Program-made: the position numbers and the translations under genes
Origin: Spirochaetia bacterium
GTDB lineage: Bacteria; Spirochaetota; Spirochaetia; UBA9216
NCBI GenBank assembly: GCA_963677925.2
Contig: CAXXYH010000004.1
Location: 96,001-160,000, forward strand
Direction of reading: 5' to 3'
DNA: 64,000 nucleotides
The notes under the pieces: model-generated
The model's database searches: none
Told to the model about the DNA's origin: nothing
The model's input: the letters and a program-made list of their open reading frames with translations, nothing else
Shown here: piece after piece, positions 22,028-30,598 of the stretch
Layout: each line of letters starts with the position of its first letter
Position numbering within the stretch: the stretch's first letter is position 1

Positions 22028-23287
22028 ATGATAAGAAAAATAGCCACAGGCTTGGCAGTCTCTGTCATTCTTCTTGCTTTGACAGGCTGTCCCGATTTTG
22101 AAATCCCGGAAGATAATGCGGGCATCATAGATCTGCCTTCCTCAATTGCCTCTGACGCATCTTCAAGAGGCCCGGCATCAAAGGCTGCCAGGACTCCCGA
22201 AGGCGACGCTATAAGCGCTCTTTTCTCGCCGATCAGGGATTATATCGGCTTTGCCAATGATCTTGGACAGCAGCTTGAAGGACTGATTGTAGGACTTCCG
22301 GCTATAGCCGAACTGACCGAATATGCCGAGGCCTCTGCCGGAAGCTACAGCGAAAGCGGCGACAACTACGTGAGCGTAAACAGTGTAAGTGTTGATGATT
22401 ACGATTTACGGGTAAATCTCAGCAGCACTGCTGATGACAGCGGTCTTATTCTGCAGCTCTTTCTTGATTCCTCAGTTGAAAACAAGGAAAAGGGCATGGC
22501 GATTTTTATCACCGACATGGACGGAAGCGACGGCGGAGACGCCGGTGACGAGCAGGTTAAGATAATTTACGACGTCACAGCATCTTCAACCGAACCGGCT
22601 ATGGAGCTGATGGTAGGCGGTGCAGTCGGCGGACATACCGAAAACTGGGCTCCTGATGCCCTTTGGCTGAAAGTATGGAAAAACGATACAACACTCAAAG
22701 TCTGCGGAATAAGCTCACACCCGAATGCGGAACTTCAGACAGACGATATGTTTCTTGATTCAGGAGTTACATCCAGGTACTACATGTTTTCCGGAATAAC
22801 CTATACAAACTCAAATGTAGCAGCAGTACAGGTTGCAATCCCTGTCCAGGAAGTAACCGCTGACTTCTACACAACTTACAGCCCCGGGCAGCTGCTTAAA
22901 GACTATCAGCTTTATGAGATTAAAACAAATAATACCGGAGACTGGGCTAATGCGGCAGATTATCTGTACACGGATCCTGGTGAATATACTTCTTATTTCT
23001 CAACAGCACCTGCCGGATTTGATTCAAACTTCACTGAAGACATGATGATGGATACAATAGATGCATATCAGGCATACCTTAATGCCAGCGGTTCAGGCGT
23101 ATCTGCAGACCTGAGTGCTTATGTTTTTATAGCAAACCTTACAAACCCGGTTTATTTCAGCAGCACCGGATATTATGACCACGGTACAACAGTGCCATCA
23201 GGATATCCGTCAATCAGCAACGCACCCGCCGAATCAAACTGGGTTATACCCGATAATATCGATGCGCTTTCCATCACCTTCGAATAG
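22028..23287 (+). CDS. Hypothetical acidic lipoprotein
   Basis: RBS AGGAG; lipoprotein signal LLALTG|CPD; 419 aa, Ser/Thr/Asp/Tyr rich. Confidence 0.75.
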   Translation: MIRKIATGLAVSVILLALTGCPDFEIPEDNAGIIDLPSSIASDASSRGPASKAARTPEGDAISALFSPIRDYIGFANDLGQQLEGLIVGLPAIAELTEYAEASAGSYSESGDNYVSVNSVSVDDYDLRVNLSSTADDSGLILQLFLDSSVENKEKGMAIFITDMDGSDGGDAGDEQVKIIYDVTASSTEPAMELMVGGAVGGHTENWAPDALWLKVWKNDTTLKVCGISSHPNAELQTDDMFLDSGVTSRYYMFSGITYTNSNVAAVQVAIPVQEVTADFYTTYSPGQLLKDYQLYEIKTNNTGDWANAADYLYTDPGEYTSYFSTAPAGFDSNFTEDMMMDTIDAYQAYLNASGSGVSADLSAYVFIANLTNPVYFSSTGYYDHGTTVPSGYPSISNAPAESNWVIPDNIDALSITFE

Positions 23288-23395: not shown

Positions 23396-25021
23396 TTATT
23401 TCTTGTAGATAGCCTTCCAGGGATGAATATCCTGTACTGTTTCGTACCATCCGCCCCATACGTCAGTGTCAATCCAGTTAGCTGATGAATAGTAGTAGAA
23501 AGGCATAACAGCCATGTCTTCACCGATTGCAAGTTCTTCAGCTTTTCTGAGTACGTCAAATCTTGCTTTTCCGCCGGGCATTGTTGCTGCTTCTGCGAGA
23601 AGAGCATCAAATTCAGCACTGTTGTACTTACCGTCATTGTTTCCTGAACCTGAGTAAAGGAGGTCAGTGAGGAAGGTATTAGGATCAACATAGTCTCCCT
23701 GCCAACCGGCACGGGCTACGTCGAAGTTCTGATTCTGTCTGTTGTCAAGGAAGGTTGCCCATTCCTGGTTTTCAATCTGTACATTGATTCCAAGAACTTC
23801 AGCCCATTTCTGCTGTACATACTGAGCTATGTTTTTGTGACCTTCACTTGTGTTGTAAATAATTGTTGTTTCAGGGAAACCTGCTCCGCCGGGGAAACCA
23901 GCTTCAGCAAGAAGAGCCTTTGCTTCTTCAACATCTTCTTCAAATCCAACAACTGCAGGGTAAAGACCTGGAAGAGGAGGAGTAAGACCGAAAGCAGGGA
24001 ACTGACCGCCTCTGGTAACCTTGTCAACAAGTTCCTGTCTGTCGATAGCCATTGCAAGAGCTTTTCTTACACGGACATCATCAAAAGGAGCCTTGGTCAT
24101 GTTGAACTCGTAGTAGTAAGTAATAAAAGAAGCGTTTGTTCTGTATCCCTTATCGAGCTTCATTTCATCAAGTCTGTTCGGAGGAGTTTCCTGCAGCCAG
24201 TTAATCTCACCGTTCAGATACATGTTTGTAGCTGTATTCTGATCATCAATCGGGAAGAAAACGATCTGGTCGAGTTTTACATTTCCCTTGTCCCAGTAAG
24301 TTTCACTCTTTTCAACGATAATCTTATCCTGTGGAGTCCAGCTTACGAGGTTGAAAGGACCGTTTGAAACCATATTTTCAGGTCTGGTCCATGCGTCACC
24401 GTATTTTTCAATTGCATGCATAGGAACTACAGCAAATGCGTAATGTGAAAGCATACCAAGTACGTAAGGTGCGGGTCCAGTAAGGTCGAACTGGAATGTA
24501 TAGTCATCAAGAGCTCTGATTGCTACTGCATCAGGTCCGGCTTCACCGGCATTGTATTCTGCAGCACCCTTAATTACCATTGCTGGAAGGTATGCATATA
24601 CAGCTGCTGTTTCAGGTGCCATGAATCTGAGCCAGGAATCAACAAACTGCTGAGCAGTTATCTTTGTTCCGTCTGACCAAACTGCGTTCTTTCTAAGGTG
24701 GAAAGTCCAAGTCAGTGAATCATCAGATACTTCCCAGCTTTCAGCTGTTCCGGGAATAGCATCAAGAGATTCCGGGTCATAGGTTACAAGGCCTTCAAAA
24801 AGCGCCATGTAAAGGTTGTGCTCAGGTACACCTTCGATAACGGCAGGATCCAGTGATTCCGGTTCTGCTCCGTTGTCAAACTTAAATACTACCGGTTCAG
24901 CCATAGGTGCGGGTGCCGCTTCAGTACCGGTAGAAGCTTCCTGCTTACCGCCTGCAAAGGTAAAGGCAGGAACGATCATCAGGATCAGCAGTGCTGCAAC
25001 AATCAGTTTTTTCATTTTCAT
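23396..25021 (-). CDS. oppA: Oligopeptide ABC transporter substrate-binding protein
   Basis: EPESLDP, LFEGLV, WSDG, SNGPF, RAGWQGDY; signal peptide FAGGKQE. Confidence 0.92.
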   Translation of the reverse strand: MKMKKLIVAALLILMIVPAFTFAGGKQEASTGTEAAPAPMAEPVVFKFDNGAEPESLDPAVIEGVPEHNLYMALFEGLVTYDPESLDAIPGTAESWEVSDDSLTWTFHLRKNAVWSDGTKITAQQFVDSWLRFMAPETAAVYAYLPAMVIKGAAEYNAGEAGPDAVAIRALDDYTFQFDLTGPAPYVLGMLSHYAFAVVPMHAIEKYGDAWTRPENMVSNGPFNLVSWTPQDKIIVEKSETYWDKGNVKLDQIVFFPIDDQNTATNMYLNGEINWLQETPPNRLDEMKLDKGYRTNASFITYYYEFNMTKAPFDDVRVRKALAMAIDRQELVDKVTRGGQFPAFGLTPPLPGLYPAVVGFEEDVEEAKALLAEAGFPGGAGFPETTIIYNTSEGHKNIAQYVQQKWAEVLGINVQIENQEWATFLDNRQNQNFDVARAGWQGDYVDPNTFLTDLLYSGSGNNDGKYNSAEFDALLAEAATMPGGKARFDVLRKAEELAIGEDMAVMPFYYYSSANWIDTDVWGGWYETVQDIHPWKAIYKK

Positions 25022-25127: not shown

Positions 25128-26822
25128 TTAGAAGTCACTATTAATCAGTTTTTTACATTCAGAATGGACATTCTCAACCGGAACACGCCATGTCTTCCGG
25201 GTTTTTCTTTCATAAAACTCTGCATTTCCGTCCTCAAGACTCTTTGTTGAGATAACAATCCTGTATGGAATTCCAAGCAGATCAAAATCCTTAAACTTAA
25301 CACCTATGGATTCATGACGGTCGTCAAACAGAACCATTGACCCGAGATCCTCGGCTAGTGAATCAACAACCTTTTTAACCCTGAGAGATTTCCCGATCCC
25401 CATAAGGTAGAAGCAGTATGGAGTAAGTTCCATCGGCCAGATAATTCCCTGCTCATCATGGTTTGCCTCTACCACAGCGGCCATAAGCCGGCCAAGGCCT
25501 ATACCGTAGGAACCCATGTGCGGATAGCCTACTCCGCCGTTTTCTTCAGTAAAGGACAGGCCAATTGATTTTGAGTAAAAATCACCCAGTTTGAAAACAT
25601 TCCCGACTTCAAGCGCGGCAAACTCTTTCATCGGGGTTTCACACTGAGTGCAGAGATCCTTTGCGTGAATACTTACAATATCACCTATCAGTTCACTTTC
25701 AAAATCACGCCCGAAATTGGCATTTACTATATGTTTGCCGGGTTTATCTGCACCTACAACAAGATTAGCGGACTGGGCTACAAGATCATCAACAACATGC
25801 CGGAATCCGGTAATCTCGGCGGACGGAAATAAAAACCCGGGCTGCAGTCCGAAAGAGGCAACCTCATCCTGAGTGGCCGGGCCGATGACAGGTTCTTCCA
25901 GAAACCTGGAGAGCTTTTCATTGCTGATTTCATAATCAGCTCTGTAGGTTACAAGAACCCAGTCTTTCAGGGTTTTGTACAGGGAAGTGACAGCTATCCG
26001 CGGCAGGGGGATTTTTAAGGCCCTGGCCAGATCATGTACCCCGGCATACTGGGGTGAATTGATTTCACTGGACATCACAGGAATTTCATTGATGATTGAT
26101 TTCTTGCCGACTGCTATATCACGATTAGCAGTGTATCCGCATGACGGACAGGTAATTACACGAGCGTCACCTATTTCACTCGGCATAAGAAATTCATAGG
26201 CCCTGTCCCCTGAAAGAGAACCGACTGCAGATTCCGCCGTAACAAAGGGCACCTGACATCGCTCAAAAATCTTTTCGTAGGCTTTAAAAACTTTCGGAAA
26301 AAAGATATTGAGATCAACATAGGACCGGTGGAAGGAATAGGCATCGTTCATAACAAATTCTTTTGCCCTGAACAGTCCGTTCTTAACTTTTTCTTCATCC
26401 CTGTACTTAGTCTGGAACTGATAAAGAAATCTGGGGACATCACGATAGCTATTAATGGCCATTCGTGCAATCTGGGTGATAGGTTCAAGATGACTTGTTG
26501 AAAGTACTAGATTATGTCCTGTGCGGTCTGAAAACCTGATAAGCTCACGGCCTATAAGCTGGTCTCTTCCTGTTTTCTTCCAGAGATTCTGCGGGACCAC
26601 AAGCGGAAGTTCAATTTCCTGACCGCCTAAATTCTCAAGTTCTTCACGAATTACGCCCTTAAGCTTGTCCATAACCCTCATTCCAAGCGGCATCATGGCA
26701 AAAAGACCGGGTCCGACCGATCTTATGTACCCGCCCCTGTGGAGAAGGGAAAAACTTGCAGCCTTTGCCTTGCCGGAGCTGTGTCTGAGAGTGTTATTAC
26801 CAAAGAGACTTGAATATTTCAT
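25128..26822 (-). CDS. Prolyl-tRNA synthetase-like protein (bacterial type with INS domain), divergent active site
   Basis: Motif 2 KYRDE...REF-like RAKEFVMNDAYSF, motif 3 GSYGIGLGR, anticodon domain DDR..GVKF.D.DLLGIP; the TXE motif reads SHL. Confidence 0.8.
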   Translation of the reverse strand: MKYSSLFGNNTLRHSSGKAKAASFSLLHRGGYIRSVGPGLFAMMPLGMRVMDKLKGVIREELENLGGQEIELPLVVPQNLWKKTGRDQLIGRELIRFSDRTGHNLVLSTSHLEPITQIARMAINSYRDVPRFLYQFQTKYRDEEKVKNGLFRAKEFVMNDAYSFHRSYVDLNIFFPKVFKAYEKIFERCQVPFVTAESAVGSLSGDRAYEFLMPSEIGDARVITCPSCGYTANRDIAVGKKSIINEIPVMSSEINSPQYAGVHDLARALKIPLPRIAVTSLYKTLKDWVLVTYRADYEISNEKLSRFLEEPVIGPATQDEVASFGLQPGFLFPSAEITGFRHVVDDLVAQSANLVVGADKPGKHIVNANFGRDFESELIGDIVSIHAKDLCTQCETPMKEFAALEVGNVFKLGDFYSKSIGLSFTEENGGVGYPHMGSYGIGLGRLMAAVVEANHDEQGIIWPMELTPYCFYLMGIGKSLRVKKVVDSLAEDLGSMVLFDDRHESIGVKFKDFDLLGIPYRIVISTKSLEDGNAEFYERKTRKTWRVPVENVHSECKKLINSDF

Positions 26823-26969
26823 AGCTTTATTAATTCTAATATAAAATCAGCGGAAATACAGCAATTTTCTCATGAAGTGTAGAAAGAACAGGCTCAAAGC
26901 TTGACATTTGTCCTTATTATCAGGATCCTTACAATATAAATGAACTAAGGAATATTTTTTAAGGAGTGA

Positions 26970-28268
<1,299 letters not shown>

Positions 28269-28384: not shown

Positions 28385-30598
28385 TCAGGTTTCCTCAGTC
28401 TTATCAGTTTTAAACTGTCCGAAATTATCTTTCAGTTCTTCAACTATATCACCCAGCTCCTGTGAGAAATCCACCATCTGCTGCATTGCCCTGACAATTT
28501 CACGCGCTCCTGTGTTTGATTCGGCCATACCGGTTGAAACCCTGGACGAAACTTCCTTTATCTGCATTGAACTGTTCTGCATCAGCGATGTTCCGGATTT
28601 TATTTCAGCGGATCCGCTTCTGATGGACAGAGTAACTTCGTTAATCTGGTTGGTTGATTCAAGGATCTGCTGACCGCCGATGTTAAGCTCACTCACCGAC
28701 TGCTCTATTTCCGAGAAGGCATTTACAGTATCATCAACTTCTGCAGATATCCTGTCAAATGCCTGAGTAGTTTCAGCAACATTTTTATCTGTTTCAAGCA
28801 CTGAACTGGTTATATCCTTGATACTCTTGGAAATAGCCTTCGCAGAATTTCCAGCAGAATCTGCAAGCTTCCTGATTTCCTCTGCAACTACTGCAAAACC
28901 CTTTCCGGAATCTCCGGCATGCGCAGCCTCTATGGCAGCATTCATTGAAAGCAGATTAGTCTGTGCAGCAATCCCATTAATTGCGGAAGCCATCTCCTGA
29001 ATTTGATTGATATGCTCGACTACACTTTTAAATGCGGAAGCCGTCTCTTCAATCTTAGTCCTTCCATCCGATGCCACAGCAGCCAGGGCTACGGTAGTCT
29101 GTTTCTTATTCTGTGCTACATGATTAACACTGCCAAGAGAGGCCATCATCTGGGTGATGGCTGCAGTAGACTGCTCAACCATTGAAGACTGACTGATTAT
29201 CTGCTCATCGACTGATGATATATTTCTGGTAACCTGCTCAATAGCAGCAACCGTCTCATTGATATTATTATCAAGAATATCTATCTGCCCGCTTATTGAT
29301 TCAAGATTTGCACTGATTTCTTCGATAGCTGTAGAGGTTTCTTCCGCGGAAGCTACTACATTCTGTTTAATCAGGAAGGTATTTCCTATTACCCCCTTTA
29401 AATCATTCATCAAAGTACATAGTTTAAGAACAAATTCGTTGAAGTTTTTCGCCATTCCCCCTATTTCATCCTTTGTCAGAACAGGCATCTCAACTGTTAG
29501 ATCTGCATCAGCTGCAGCAAGATTTGCAAGATTACTGCCCATCTCAATAAGCGGCTTAATCATCAGTCTTGAGTAGATAAGATAAACTACAATCTGCAGA
29601 ATCAGCAGACCTGCTATAAATGCAAGAATAGGCGGTAAAACGGAACCGGTTACAATTTTTGTAATCTCACTGATCGGGGTTGATATAAACAGACCCCATC
29701 TTGTTCCCGGAATTTGAAATGAATTAATCAAAGACTTTCCGAAAGGCGTCGTTCCCTGAAAGAAATAACTGAAATCAGTTGAAACATGATTAACAAATTC
29801 GGCAATGTCAGCTTCTTTAAAGCCGAGAATCACCGCAATAGATTCCAGTGTAAGCATGTTTTCAGGATCAAAAAAATATTCTTCCTCACCGTTAGGATTC
29901 CAGATAAAGAAACCTCCGACCCTGTCGTAGATGCCAATCGTCTTTCCGGTTGATTCCATCACAGTTTTTAGTATTCTTATGATAGGATCCAGCTGATAAT
30001 TAAGCGCAAGAATCCCTGCTGCGTTTCCTGATTCATCTGTCACACCCAGAGCGACGGTTATTACAATTTTCGGGGCAGCTCCCTGTTCAGCCGAAACCCT
30101 TGGCTGGCTGATAAACGGTTCACCCGGGTAGGCAAGCGCGCCATCATAGTAGTCCCGCTTTCTGACATCAAAGCCTTCGCCTATCTGCACATCACGCCCG
30201 AGAAGAATTCCTGTTGTCTTAGTACCTGAAGCGAACACCAGATCAATATCAGTCCACTTAATTGCATATTCCATTCGCTTACTTAGCTCTGCCGCACCCT
30301 CTAATTCTATAAAATCATCATTATCAAGACCATCAGGGACCTGATCCAGCCTTTTTAGAACCTCAGCTGTCTCAGGATCAGCCGCAAGATTCCGCAGAAG
30401 CTCAAAACTTTTAATCATCTCGGACTTTACTTCCATTGCTGAGGATATCCCTTCCGCAAGTAGAAGCTCTTTTTCCTTATCGCCGAAACTGTTAGCCTGA
30501 ATAATATACATAAAAACGGAGAATATTCCCGCCACAAGCAAAGGCAGTACGATAGATAATACAATAATATTCTGTTTAACCGATCTTTTGCTCATCAA
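28385..30598 (-). CDS. Methyl-accepting chemotaxis protein (Cache-type sensor, HAMP)
   Basis: Two TM helices; DEIG HAMP; [34 protein letters not shown]. Confidence 0.95.

Follow-up and report, generated by a model that had tools for sequence, protein, structure and literature searches.

What does a full-length prolyl-tRNA synthetase (ProRS)-like protein do in a spirochete whose genome also encodes a canonical ProRS? The question is raised by one gene within a 64,000-nucleotide stretch (the window) of the Spirochaetia bacterium assembly GCA_963677925.2 (contig CAXXYH010000004.1, positions 96,001 to 160,000). A preliminary description of the gene, made from the letters of the window, had proposed that it is a paralog and not the housekeeping proS. 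This proposal is strongly supported by our analysis: a canonical proS lies elsewhere in the genome, the window protein groups in a separate clade, and members of that clade co-occur with a canonical ProRS in 54 of 55 genomes. As to its role, the residues that were changed and those that were kept lead us to give about even chances to the reading that the window protein is a non-housekeeping, neofunctionalized adenylate-forming paralog.

A canonical proS and a Spirochaetia paralog clade

The window gene encodes a protein of 564 aa with catalytic, insertion (INS) and anticodon-binding domains, a description borne out by the list of open reading frames (ORFs), by Pfam and by a structure model. 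Pfam placed tRNA-synt_2b at residues 96-454, tRNA_edit/INS at 257-370 and HGTP_anticodon at 485-558. The AlphaFold2 model, for which 78 relatives served as input, has a mean predicted local distance difference test score (pLDDT) of 93.0 and a predicted template-modeling score (pTM) of 0.89, without a low-confidence segment. The structural comparison proposed earlier was run with Foldseek, and the predicted fold is that of Enterococcus faecalis ProRS (2J3L; template-modeling (TM) score 0.93, root-mean-square deviation 2.4 Å, 566 columns). By sequence, the closest solved structures are the ProRSs of Staphylococcus aureus (E 5.6e-100) and E. faecalis (E 2.9e-98). Every motif that had been quoted is present, with the S-H-L codons where they had been placed; the protein reads LSTSHLE, KYRDEEKVKNGLFRAKEF, MNDAYSF, SGDRAYEF, EVGNVF, GSYGIGLGR, IAVTSLY, CPSC and CTQC. 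Its score with TIGR00409 (412.4-412.8 bits) is above the cut-off of 306.7, and its score with the equivalog model NF006625 (510.7 bits) is below the cut-off of 558.

A search of the whole genome (4 contigs, 99.6% complete) for a second, canonical proS, which the preliminary description had suggested, found one on another contig. This P-type gene (C3:891103-892782; L001:1408-3180(-)) has a 590-aa product that carries THEE, RPR, the editing Lys and GG..HEF, scores 606.8-607.1 bits with TIGR00409 and 719.5 bits with NF006625, and is 38% identical to the window copy. Proline charging in this genome can be attributed to this separate canonical gene. An E-type ProRS was rejected as a partner in this genome, since the best TIGR00408 match, at 99.7 bits, is well below the cut-off of 437. 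Of the 46 tRNAs encoded, three are ordinary tRNA(Pro) (CGG, GGG and UGG anticodons), all with C1:G72 and A73, and no Pro-like tRNA body with another anticodon was found among the 46. ProRSs labeled Anaerolineales, Chloroflexota, Bipolaricaulia and Omnitrophica share 62-64% identity with the canonical copy, a level characteristic of a housekeeping enzyme that evolves slowly, and the copy groups with these ProRSs in the tree. These relationships hint that the canonical proS was acquired horizontally and that the paralog, which is linked to the enolase gene (eno), was inherited vertically.

The window protein and its 120 best homologs form one group. At the position of the glutamate of the class IIa TXE loop, 30 of the homologs have Leu or Ile (P0001-P0020, seven SHIE proteins, P0080, P0098 and the fragment P0099) and 90 read (S/T)-H-E. 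In a FastTree phylogeny of 102 rows, which included 50%-identity representatives from 1.84 billion proteins, 46 rows form a clade with a support of 100, apart from all canonical P-type ProRSs. An IQ-TREE analysis of 51 rows under the posterior mean site frequency (PMSF) model likewise recovered a paralog clade of 46 rows with a support of 100.

To count clade members we used a clade profile (A1) and 151 Spirochaetia genomes that were at least 90% complete; members score at least 712 bits with this profile, canonical P-type ProRSs 520-650 bits and the window protein 888.4 bits. A hand cross-tabulation placed a clade member in 55 of the 151 genomes, in one of them split over two contigs. Fifty-three of these 55 also carry a complete ProRS of the canonical kind, which is either P-type or an E-type enzyme scoring above the TIGR00408 cut-off; G147, where a contig ends in the C-terminal part of an E-type gene, brings the co-occurrence to the total given above. 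The remaining genome is G149 (94% complete, 240 contigs), whose congener G139 has a partial E-type gene. Each of the five complete or near-complete genomes in which a clade member is the single P-type match has an E-type ProRS. In the order to which the window belongs, both copies are present in 10 of 11 genomes, the exception being 81% complete. A phylum-wide sample gave clade matches in 5 of 201 genomes, all of them of the class Spirochaetia. We conclude that, in the genomes sampled, the paralog clade is restricted to the class Spirochaetia, is old, and is separate from the canonical P-type ProRSs. Most of its members keep the TXE Glu, and the trait of the window protein thus sits inside a wider paralog family.

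Databases name the whole clade 'proline--tRNA ligase', and annotation therefore hides a distinct family. In the full-text literature searched, which was represented in part by abstracts, we found no description of a spirochete ProRS paralog. A full-length ProRS paralog that occurs across many free-living Spirochaetia families, nearly always beside a canonical ProRS, thus appears to be undescribed in that literature.

The amino-acid pocket and the TXE-lost sublineage

Residue roles were transferred from the MtbProRS-prolyl-adenylate structure by motif register, without a ligand-bound superposition. In the available portion of the report on that structure (PMC13629369), the Thr111 hydroxyl and the Glu113 carboxylate of the TXE loop bind the proline amine, and Arg142 contacts the alpha-phosphate and the carbonyl. 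The same portion assigns adenine contacts to Glu144, Phe157 and Arg462, ribose contacts to Glu422, Gly424 and Gly459, metal coordination to Glu211, Glu422 and His425, and the proline-binding loop to residues 200-207 (PMC13629369). In the register of the motifs, the window counterparts of the TXE pair are S110 and L112, those at the ATP/adenylate site are R141, E143, F156, R445, E405, G407, G442, E210 and N408, and the proline-binding loop corresponds to residues 199-206, AVGSLSGD. The Glu that is replaced by L112 is present in all 134 canonical sequences and in 139 of 150 diverse representatives. Among the 11 representatives without it, three have Asp, three have a gap (two of these are short fragments), most of the others look degenerate at further active-site motifs, and one is itself a member of the clade that has lost the Glu (hereafter TXE-lost, as opposed to TXE-intact).

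Two further sites have changed at positions that are invariant or nearly so in canonical ProRSs. The RPR loop, with frequencies of 1.00 (R), 0.97 (P) and 0.99 (R) in the canonical set, is KVK in the window protein. According to the accessible text of PMC11229370, RPR/R144 recognizes acceptor-stem G72/A73, and replacement of the first RPR Arg lowers tRNA(Pro) charging more than 1000-fold in Escherichia coli and 270-fold with the P-type ProRS of Bacillus thuringiensis. The Lys of the INS domain, on which editing of Ala-tRNA(Pro) depends in canonical enzymes and which had been described as not evident, is indeed replaced: V278 (codon 25989-25991, (-) strand) occupies a column where K is found in all 134 canonical sequences and in a fraction of 0.99 of the TXE-intact paralogs; among TXE-lost sequences, the fraction with V is 0.44. 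This column probably equals that of E. coli K279, and the K279A variant of E. coli ProRS is editing-defective in the part of PMC3973320 at hand. Together with G204S in the proline-binding loop, we count these three replacements (TXE Glu to Leu, RPR to KVK and editing Lys to Val) as the meaningful changes.

Other features that had been listed were either kept or proved uninformative. ATP-binding motif 2, the motif 3 Arg and the CPSC/CTQC pair are all found in the window protein, and this Cys4 cluster is present in the genome's canonical copy too. The change from EVGHIF to EVGNVF had been listed as altered, but the genome's canonical ProRS reads EVGNIF and the column is N in 35 of 150 representatives. 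Similarly, the His-to-Tyr change in SHEF falls in a column with H in 71, Y in 18 and E in 17 of 150 sequences, and with Lys in E. faecalis ProRS. We therefore rejected both H209Y and H408N as signs of altered function, since both columns vary among ordinary ProRSs and the canonical copy has Asn. Nor is MNDAYSF in place of MKDAYSF diagnostic, as N159 is particular to the window copy and 12 of 18 close relatives have K. By this mapping, the window protein has a complete ATP/adenylate site, lacks the ionic partner of the amine and has a different proline-binding loop.

The window protein belongs to one sublineage in which the TXE Glu has become Leu or Ile, the proline-binding loop has been remodeled (G199A, Y202S, M203L and G204S) and a gene for a UPF0158-GNAT fusion has gone. 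The 34 TXE-lost sequences have A199, S202, L203 and S204 at frequencies of 0.91, 0.91, 0.85 and 0.88, at positions occupied by G, Y, M and G in the 114 TXE-intact paralogs. In the same 34 sequences, which diverge to ∼46-50% identity, R141, E143, E155, F156, E210, E405, F410, G442 and R445 are 100% conserved, and so is S110. Mean column conservation of the anticodon-binding domain is 0.71 in TXE-lost and 0.58 in TXE-intact sequences, and that of the catalytic core is 0.73 in TXE-lost sequences. Within the family f1, SHIE genera retain the editing Lys (IAKTLVY) and SHLE genera, including that of the window, have Val, Glu, Pro or Asp.

The UPF0158-GNAT protein, a fusion recognized by Pfam and specific to Spirochaetota, is ∼315 aa long and is encoded directly downstream of the paralog on the same strand in 23 of 36 unique loci and 14 of 20 further loci (for example L014:7698-8639(+), and beside the paralog in L083-L112 and L114-L132). 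It has weak rimI-like NCBIfam matches, and its Atlas clusters all consist of uncharacterized Spirochaetota GNATs. The gene is absent from the whole genome of the window. In the class sample, where 87 of 151 genomes carry it, it was found in none of the 9 genomes with a TXE-lost paralog (seven of family f1, plus G012 and G022) and in 35 of the 36 with a TXE-intact paralog, the exception being G099, which has a degenerate copy. All 10 paralog genomes outside the motif reading carry it as well. The idea that the GNAT protein is a strict partner of the paralog is weakened by 42 genomes (hand count) that have the GNAT gene without a paralog scoring at least 712 bits with A1.

FastTree and a quick IQ-TREE run had suggested two independent losses of the TXE Glu. 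We set this possibility aside after an approximately unbiased (AU) test, run with the trait columns kept in the alignment, in which a tree uniting all 15 TXE-lost rows was 28.12 log-likelihood units above the quick free tree (p-AU 0.913). Because the test does not reject one origin, the changes in the Glu, the loop and the GNAT gene are best counted as a single event and not as replicated co-evolution. Between G000 and G002, the one pair of genomes in which substitutions are not saturated, the nonsynonymous substitution rate (dN) of the paralog is 0.007, its synonymous rate (dS) 0.506 and the ratio of the two (omega) 0.014, compared with an omega of 0.019 for canonical proS. Across the order, the dN of the paralog is ∼1.8 times that of canonical proS, and its ORF is intact in 10 of 10 genomes. 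Purifying selection on the paralog matches in strength that acting on the housekeeping gene. The earlier suggestion that S-H-L might define a clade under purifying selection thus had a positive outcome, given the AU test, the omega value and the conserved sites. In this sublineage the pocket took on a new form and then stayed fixed, a pattern unlike decay.

More divergent relatives of the paralog occur in the families f31, f37 and f24, and the f24 copies lack E143, E210 and F211. The f24 ORFs (L119, L120 and L121, from G033, G079 and G057) are 568-611 aa long and lie in genomes of ∼1.9 Mb with an E-type ProRS; they read RPL or RPV for RDE and AFAL or ALAL for YEF, and neither eno nor the GNAT gene adjoins them. 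From these residues, they are likely to be true pseudo-synthetases. At G120:C1:2632871-2634492, a clade copy is split in two with a TAG inside, and a UPF0158-GNAT gene follows it; it is an apparent pseudogene in a genome with a canonical P-type ProRS. Outside the clade, P0346, P0370, P0375 and P0382 are ProRS-like proteins without the motif 2 Arg/Glu or the TXE Glu, so that further lineages may also harbor degenerate ProRS paralogs.

Candidate functions of the paralog

If the window protein is a neofunctionalized adenylate-forming paralog, it would still bind ATP and form an acyl-adenylate, and its substrate would be a carboxylate that resembles proline but is bound otherwise than by a cationic alpha-amine. 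Such a ligand would be something other than ordinary L-proline. With KVK in place of RPR and an editing site that is probably disabled, the protein is unlikely to make Pro-tRNA(Pro) efficiently and with proofreading. In view of the good conservation of its anticodon-binding domain, it may still bind tRNA(Pro), as an acceptor or as a specificity handle. We favor a new ligand over a dead enzyme because the ATP site is intact and the amino-acid loop was remodeled and then conserved.

Several observations weigh against this reading. Neither the loci nor the genome's tRNAs revealed a conserved neighbor, a carrier protein or an unusual tRNA that would hint at a new substrate or acceptor. The second Glu of THEE (E113) is retained and Ser110 still has a hydroxyl, and with both in place proline might be bound in a shifted register. 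Lys at the first RPR position is a conservative change. The dN/dS estimate comes from a single genome pair, all other pairs being dS-saturated. Finally, ATP-site residues have been lost in the f24 copies and in P0346, P0370 and P0375, so the role that the family retains may not need catalysis.

This last point bears on a second explanation, which we consider somewhat unlikely: a pseudo-synthetase that forms no acyl-adenylate and has been kept because it binds ATP, tRNA(Pro) or both. Like HisZ or other synthetase-derived regulators, it could serve, for example, as a sensor, a regulator, a tRNA chaperone or a partner of another protein. Such a protein would fit a branch in which three ProRS functions (TXE Glu, RPR loop and editing Lys) were hit at once and the anticodon-binding domain is about as conserved as the catalytic core. 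It would also fit the f24 copies, which are full-length despite their heavier catalytic decay, and a gene without a Shine-Dalgarno sequence, which is compatible with low abundance. However, a role in RNA binding alone would not need nine ATP/adenylate-site residues to be invariant in the TXE-lost sequences, and the proline-binding loop has not drifted but has moved to a new conserved state.

An auxiliary but genuine ProRS isozyme, with altered kinetics and a stress-specific or inhibitor-tolerant role like that of the two ProRSs of B. thuringiensis, is in our estimate unlikely. Two functional ProRSs in one bacterium are documented in the text available from PMC11229370. The score above the TIGR00409 cut-off, the intact fold, ATP site, anticodon-binding domain and dimer-type architecture, the ordinary P-type acceptor ends of the genome's three tRNA(Pro), and the (S/T)-H-E and editing Lys retained by most of the wider clade are all consistent with an isozyme. 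It is difficult to reconcile, though, with Leu in place of the salt-bridging TXE Glu and a rebuilt binding loop, with KVK in place of RPR, or with a score under the NF006625 cut-off; moreover, resistance or stress isozymes normally retain their catalytic residues. A decaying remnant, that is, a redundant ancestral proS that a second ProRS has replaced and that is turning into a pseudogene, is highly improbable and was rejected for the window copy, since the raised dN of the paralog, the interrupted copy in G120 (by a stop or frameshift) and the heavily degenerate f24 copies are outweighed by intact ORFs in every paralog-bearing genome of the order, the low omega on a recent branch, a TXE-lost state that persists below 50% identity with its functional sites conserved, and a structure model predicted with confidence throughout.

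Within the adenylate-forming reading, we can also name a more specific proposal, although we judge it decidedly unlikely: the TXE-lost branch would be a synthetase switched to a proline-like carboxylate without a cationic alpha-amine, which it loads onto tRNA(Pro) or another acceptor. Candidate substrates would be an N-acylated, oxo- or hydroxy-analog of proline. If this were true, the protein would be a descendant of an aminoacyl-tRNA synthetase (aaRS) that activates a non-amino acid and has all three ProRS domains, and the loss of the GNAT gene would mean that the ancestral acetyltransferase and paralog acted on the same amine. A non-amino-acid ligand activated by a window-type enzyme would be of interest to genetic-code engineering. 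Apart from any one reading, the clade offers a natural series of intact copies with the GNAT gene, copies with a rebuilt pocket (as in the genome of the window) and copies with a decayed ATP site, which makes it well suited to studying the ways in which synthetases acquire new substrates or depart from translation.

Genomic context and comparison with known systems

The features of the paralog and its surroundings are collected in the table. The divergent eno gene adjoins the paralog at 27 of the 36 unique loci and at 15 of another 20, and it was near canonical proS in none of 58 loci. A neighbor of the SBP_bac_5 family, encoding the peptide-binding protein of an ATP-binding cassette (ABC) transporter, occurs in 16 of 36 paralog loci and is the immediate neighbor in the window, where a promoter-like site for it lies at 25087-25059(-). 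The sole tRNA gene in the window is a tRNA-Leu, 20 kb from the paralog.

Features of the ProRS-like paralog and its neighbors in the window
Feature	Positions	Strand	Basis and remarks
419-aa protein with lipoprotein-like signal (LTGC)	22028-23287	(+)	By sequence; not conserved beside the paralog elsewhere
SBP_bac_5 peptide ABC-transporter binding protein, downstream of paralog	23396..25021	(-)	Pfam; own Shine-Dalgarno
ProRS-like paralog ORF	25128..26822	(-)	ORF list; intact, ATG start, 564 aa
Anticodon-binding domain, residues ~470-560	25143..25415	(-)	Pfam HGTP_anticodon
Motif 3, GSYGIGLGR	25488..25514	(-)	G442 and R445 retained
INS (editing) domain, residues ~250-385	25668..26075	(-)	Pfam tRNA_edit
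Proline-binding loop and E210, residues 199-211, AVGSLSGDRAYEF	26190..26228	(-)	Remodeled compared with GVGYMGGEKAYEF of TXE-intact paralogs
Motif 2, residues 139-156, KYRDEEKVKNGLFRAKEF	26355..26408	(-)	R141, E143 and F156 retained; RPR loop is KVK
S110-H111-L112 codons, TXE loop, amine-binding Glu to Leu	26487..26495	(-)	Alignments to solved ProRSs; column statistics
-10-like element TATATTAGAAT	26833..26843	(-)	By sequence; ends 10 nt upstream of the ATG, without a Shine-Dalgarno after it
Enolase, divergent from paralog	26973..28268	(+)	Pfam Enolase_N/C; conserved clade neighbor
737-aa methyl-accepting-chemotaxis-like protein	28385-30598	(-)	Judged by eye; not conserved beside the paralog elsewhere

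No GGAG-like Shine-Dalgarno sequence is present within 20 nt upstream of the paralog's ATG, as the preliminary description had observed, and AAGGAG or GGAGG precedes the adjacent genes for enolase and the SBP as well as most of the order's canonical proS genes. The -10-like element listed in the table was not called by a consensus promoter scan. TATTA(G/A)AAT-like strings are found upstream of the ortholog ATGs in G005, G008, G010, G009 and G001 (L073, L074, L076, L077 and L078), and the paralog genes of the order mostly lack a Shine-Dalgarno and have a -10-like element that ends ∼10-15 nt before the ATG. This arrangement suggests a leaderless or very short-leader mRNA for the paralog genes of the order.

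Compared with canonical P-type ProRSs (2J3L and MtbProRS), to which it is 33-34% identical, the window protein has the same three-domain architecture and fold and the same ATP/adenylate-site residues and motif 3 Arg. It differs from them in the TXE Glu, the proline-binding loop, the RPR loop and the editing Lys, in scoring under the NF006625 cut-off, in not being its genome's only ProRS, and in having a clade and a conserved locus of its own.

Among ProRS duplicates, the closest parallel is ProRSx of Streptomyces and Kitasatospora, the sole ProRS paralog listed in the accessible sections of a 2022 review (PMC9437257). As far as the text available from PMC10404621 goes, ProRSx charges the mistranslator tRNAs tRNA(ProX) and is known from 46 actinomycetes. 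Like the window copy, it is a diverged duplicate of a bacterial-type ProRS that forms its own clade and stands beside a canonical enzyme in the genome (PMC10404621, PMC9437257). ProRSx keeps its proline specificity and adjoins a tRNA(Pro)-like gene whose anticodon is one for Ala, Thr or Asn (PMC10404621). In the window protein, by contrast, it is the amino-acid site that has changed, and no tRNA gene adjoins the paralog. We rejected a ProRSx-like mechanism, since no tRNA gene is adjacent and no odd tRNA(Pro)-like gene is present among the 46 tRNAs of the genome.

The pair of ProRSs in B. thuringiensis, P-type BtProRS1 and E-type BtProRS2, resembles the situation in most clade-bearing spirochetes, which likewise pair the paralog with an E-type enzyme (PMC11229370, available portion). 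Both B. thuringiensis enzymes are catalytically canonical there and BtProRS1 depends on R144 of RPR, whereas the spirochete paralogs have a relaxed RPR loop (PMC11229370). As far as that portion extends, the partner in B. thuringiensis is E-type, whereas in the genome of the window the partner is P-type and the window copy has lost the TXE Glu.

HisZ and AsnA are aaRS-derived paralogs with non-translational roles. PoxA/EpmA and SerRS-like amino acid:carrier-protein ligases are among the aaRS-derived paralogs listed in the parts of the review drawn on here (PMC9437257). The window protein is like all of these in that a class II core may have been reused outside housekeeping aminoacylation; its own sequence relationship is to ProRS only. 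Those paralogs usually lack the anticodon-binding or the editing domain or have a known partner or acceptor, whereas the window protein keeps the three ProRS domains. Dead regulators of the HisZ type lose ATP-binding and catalytic residues, whereas proteins of the window type keep them throughout the TXE-lost sequences.

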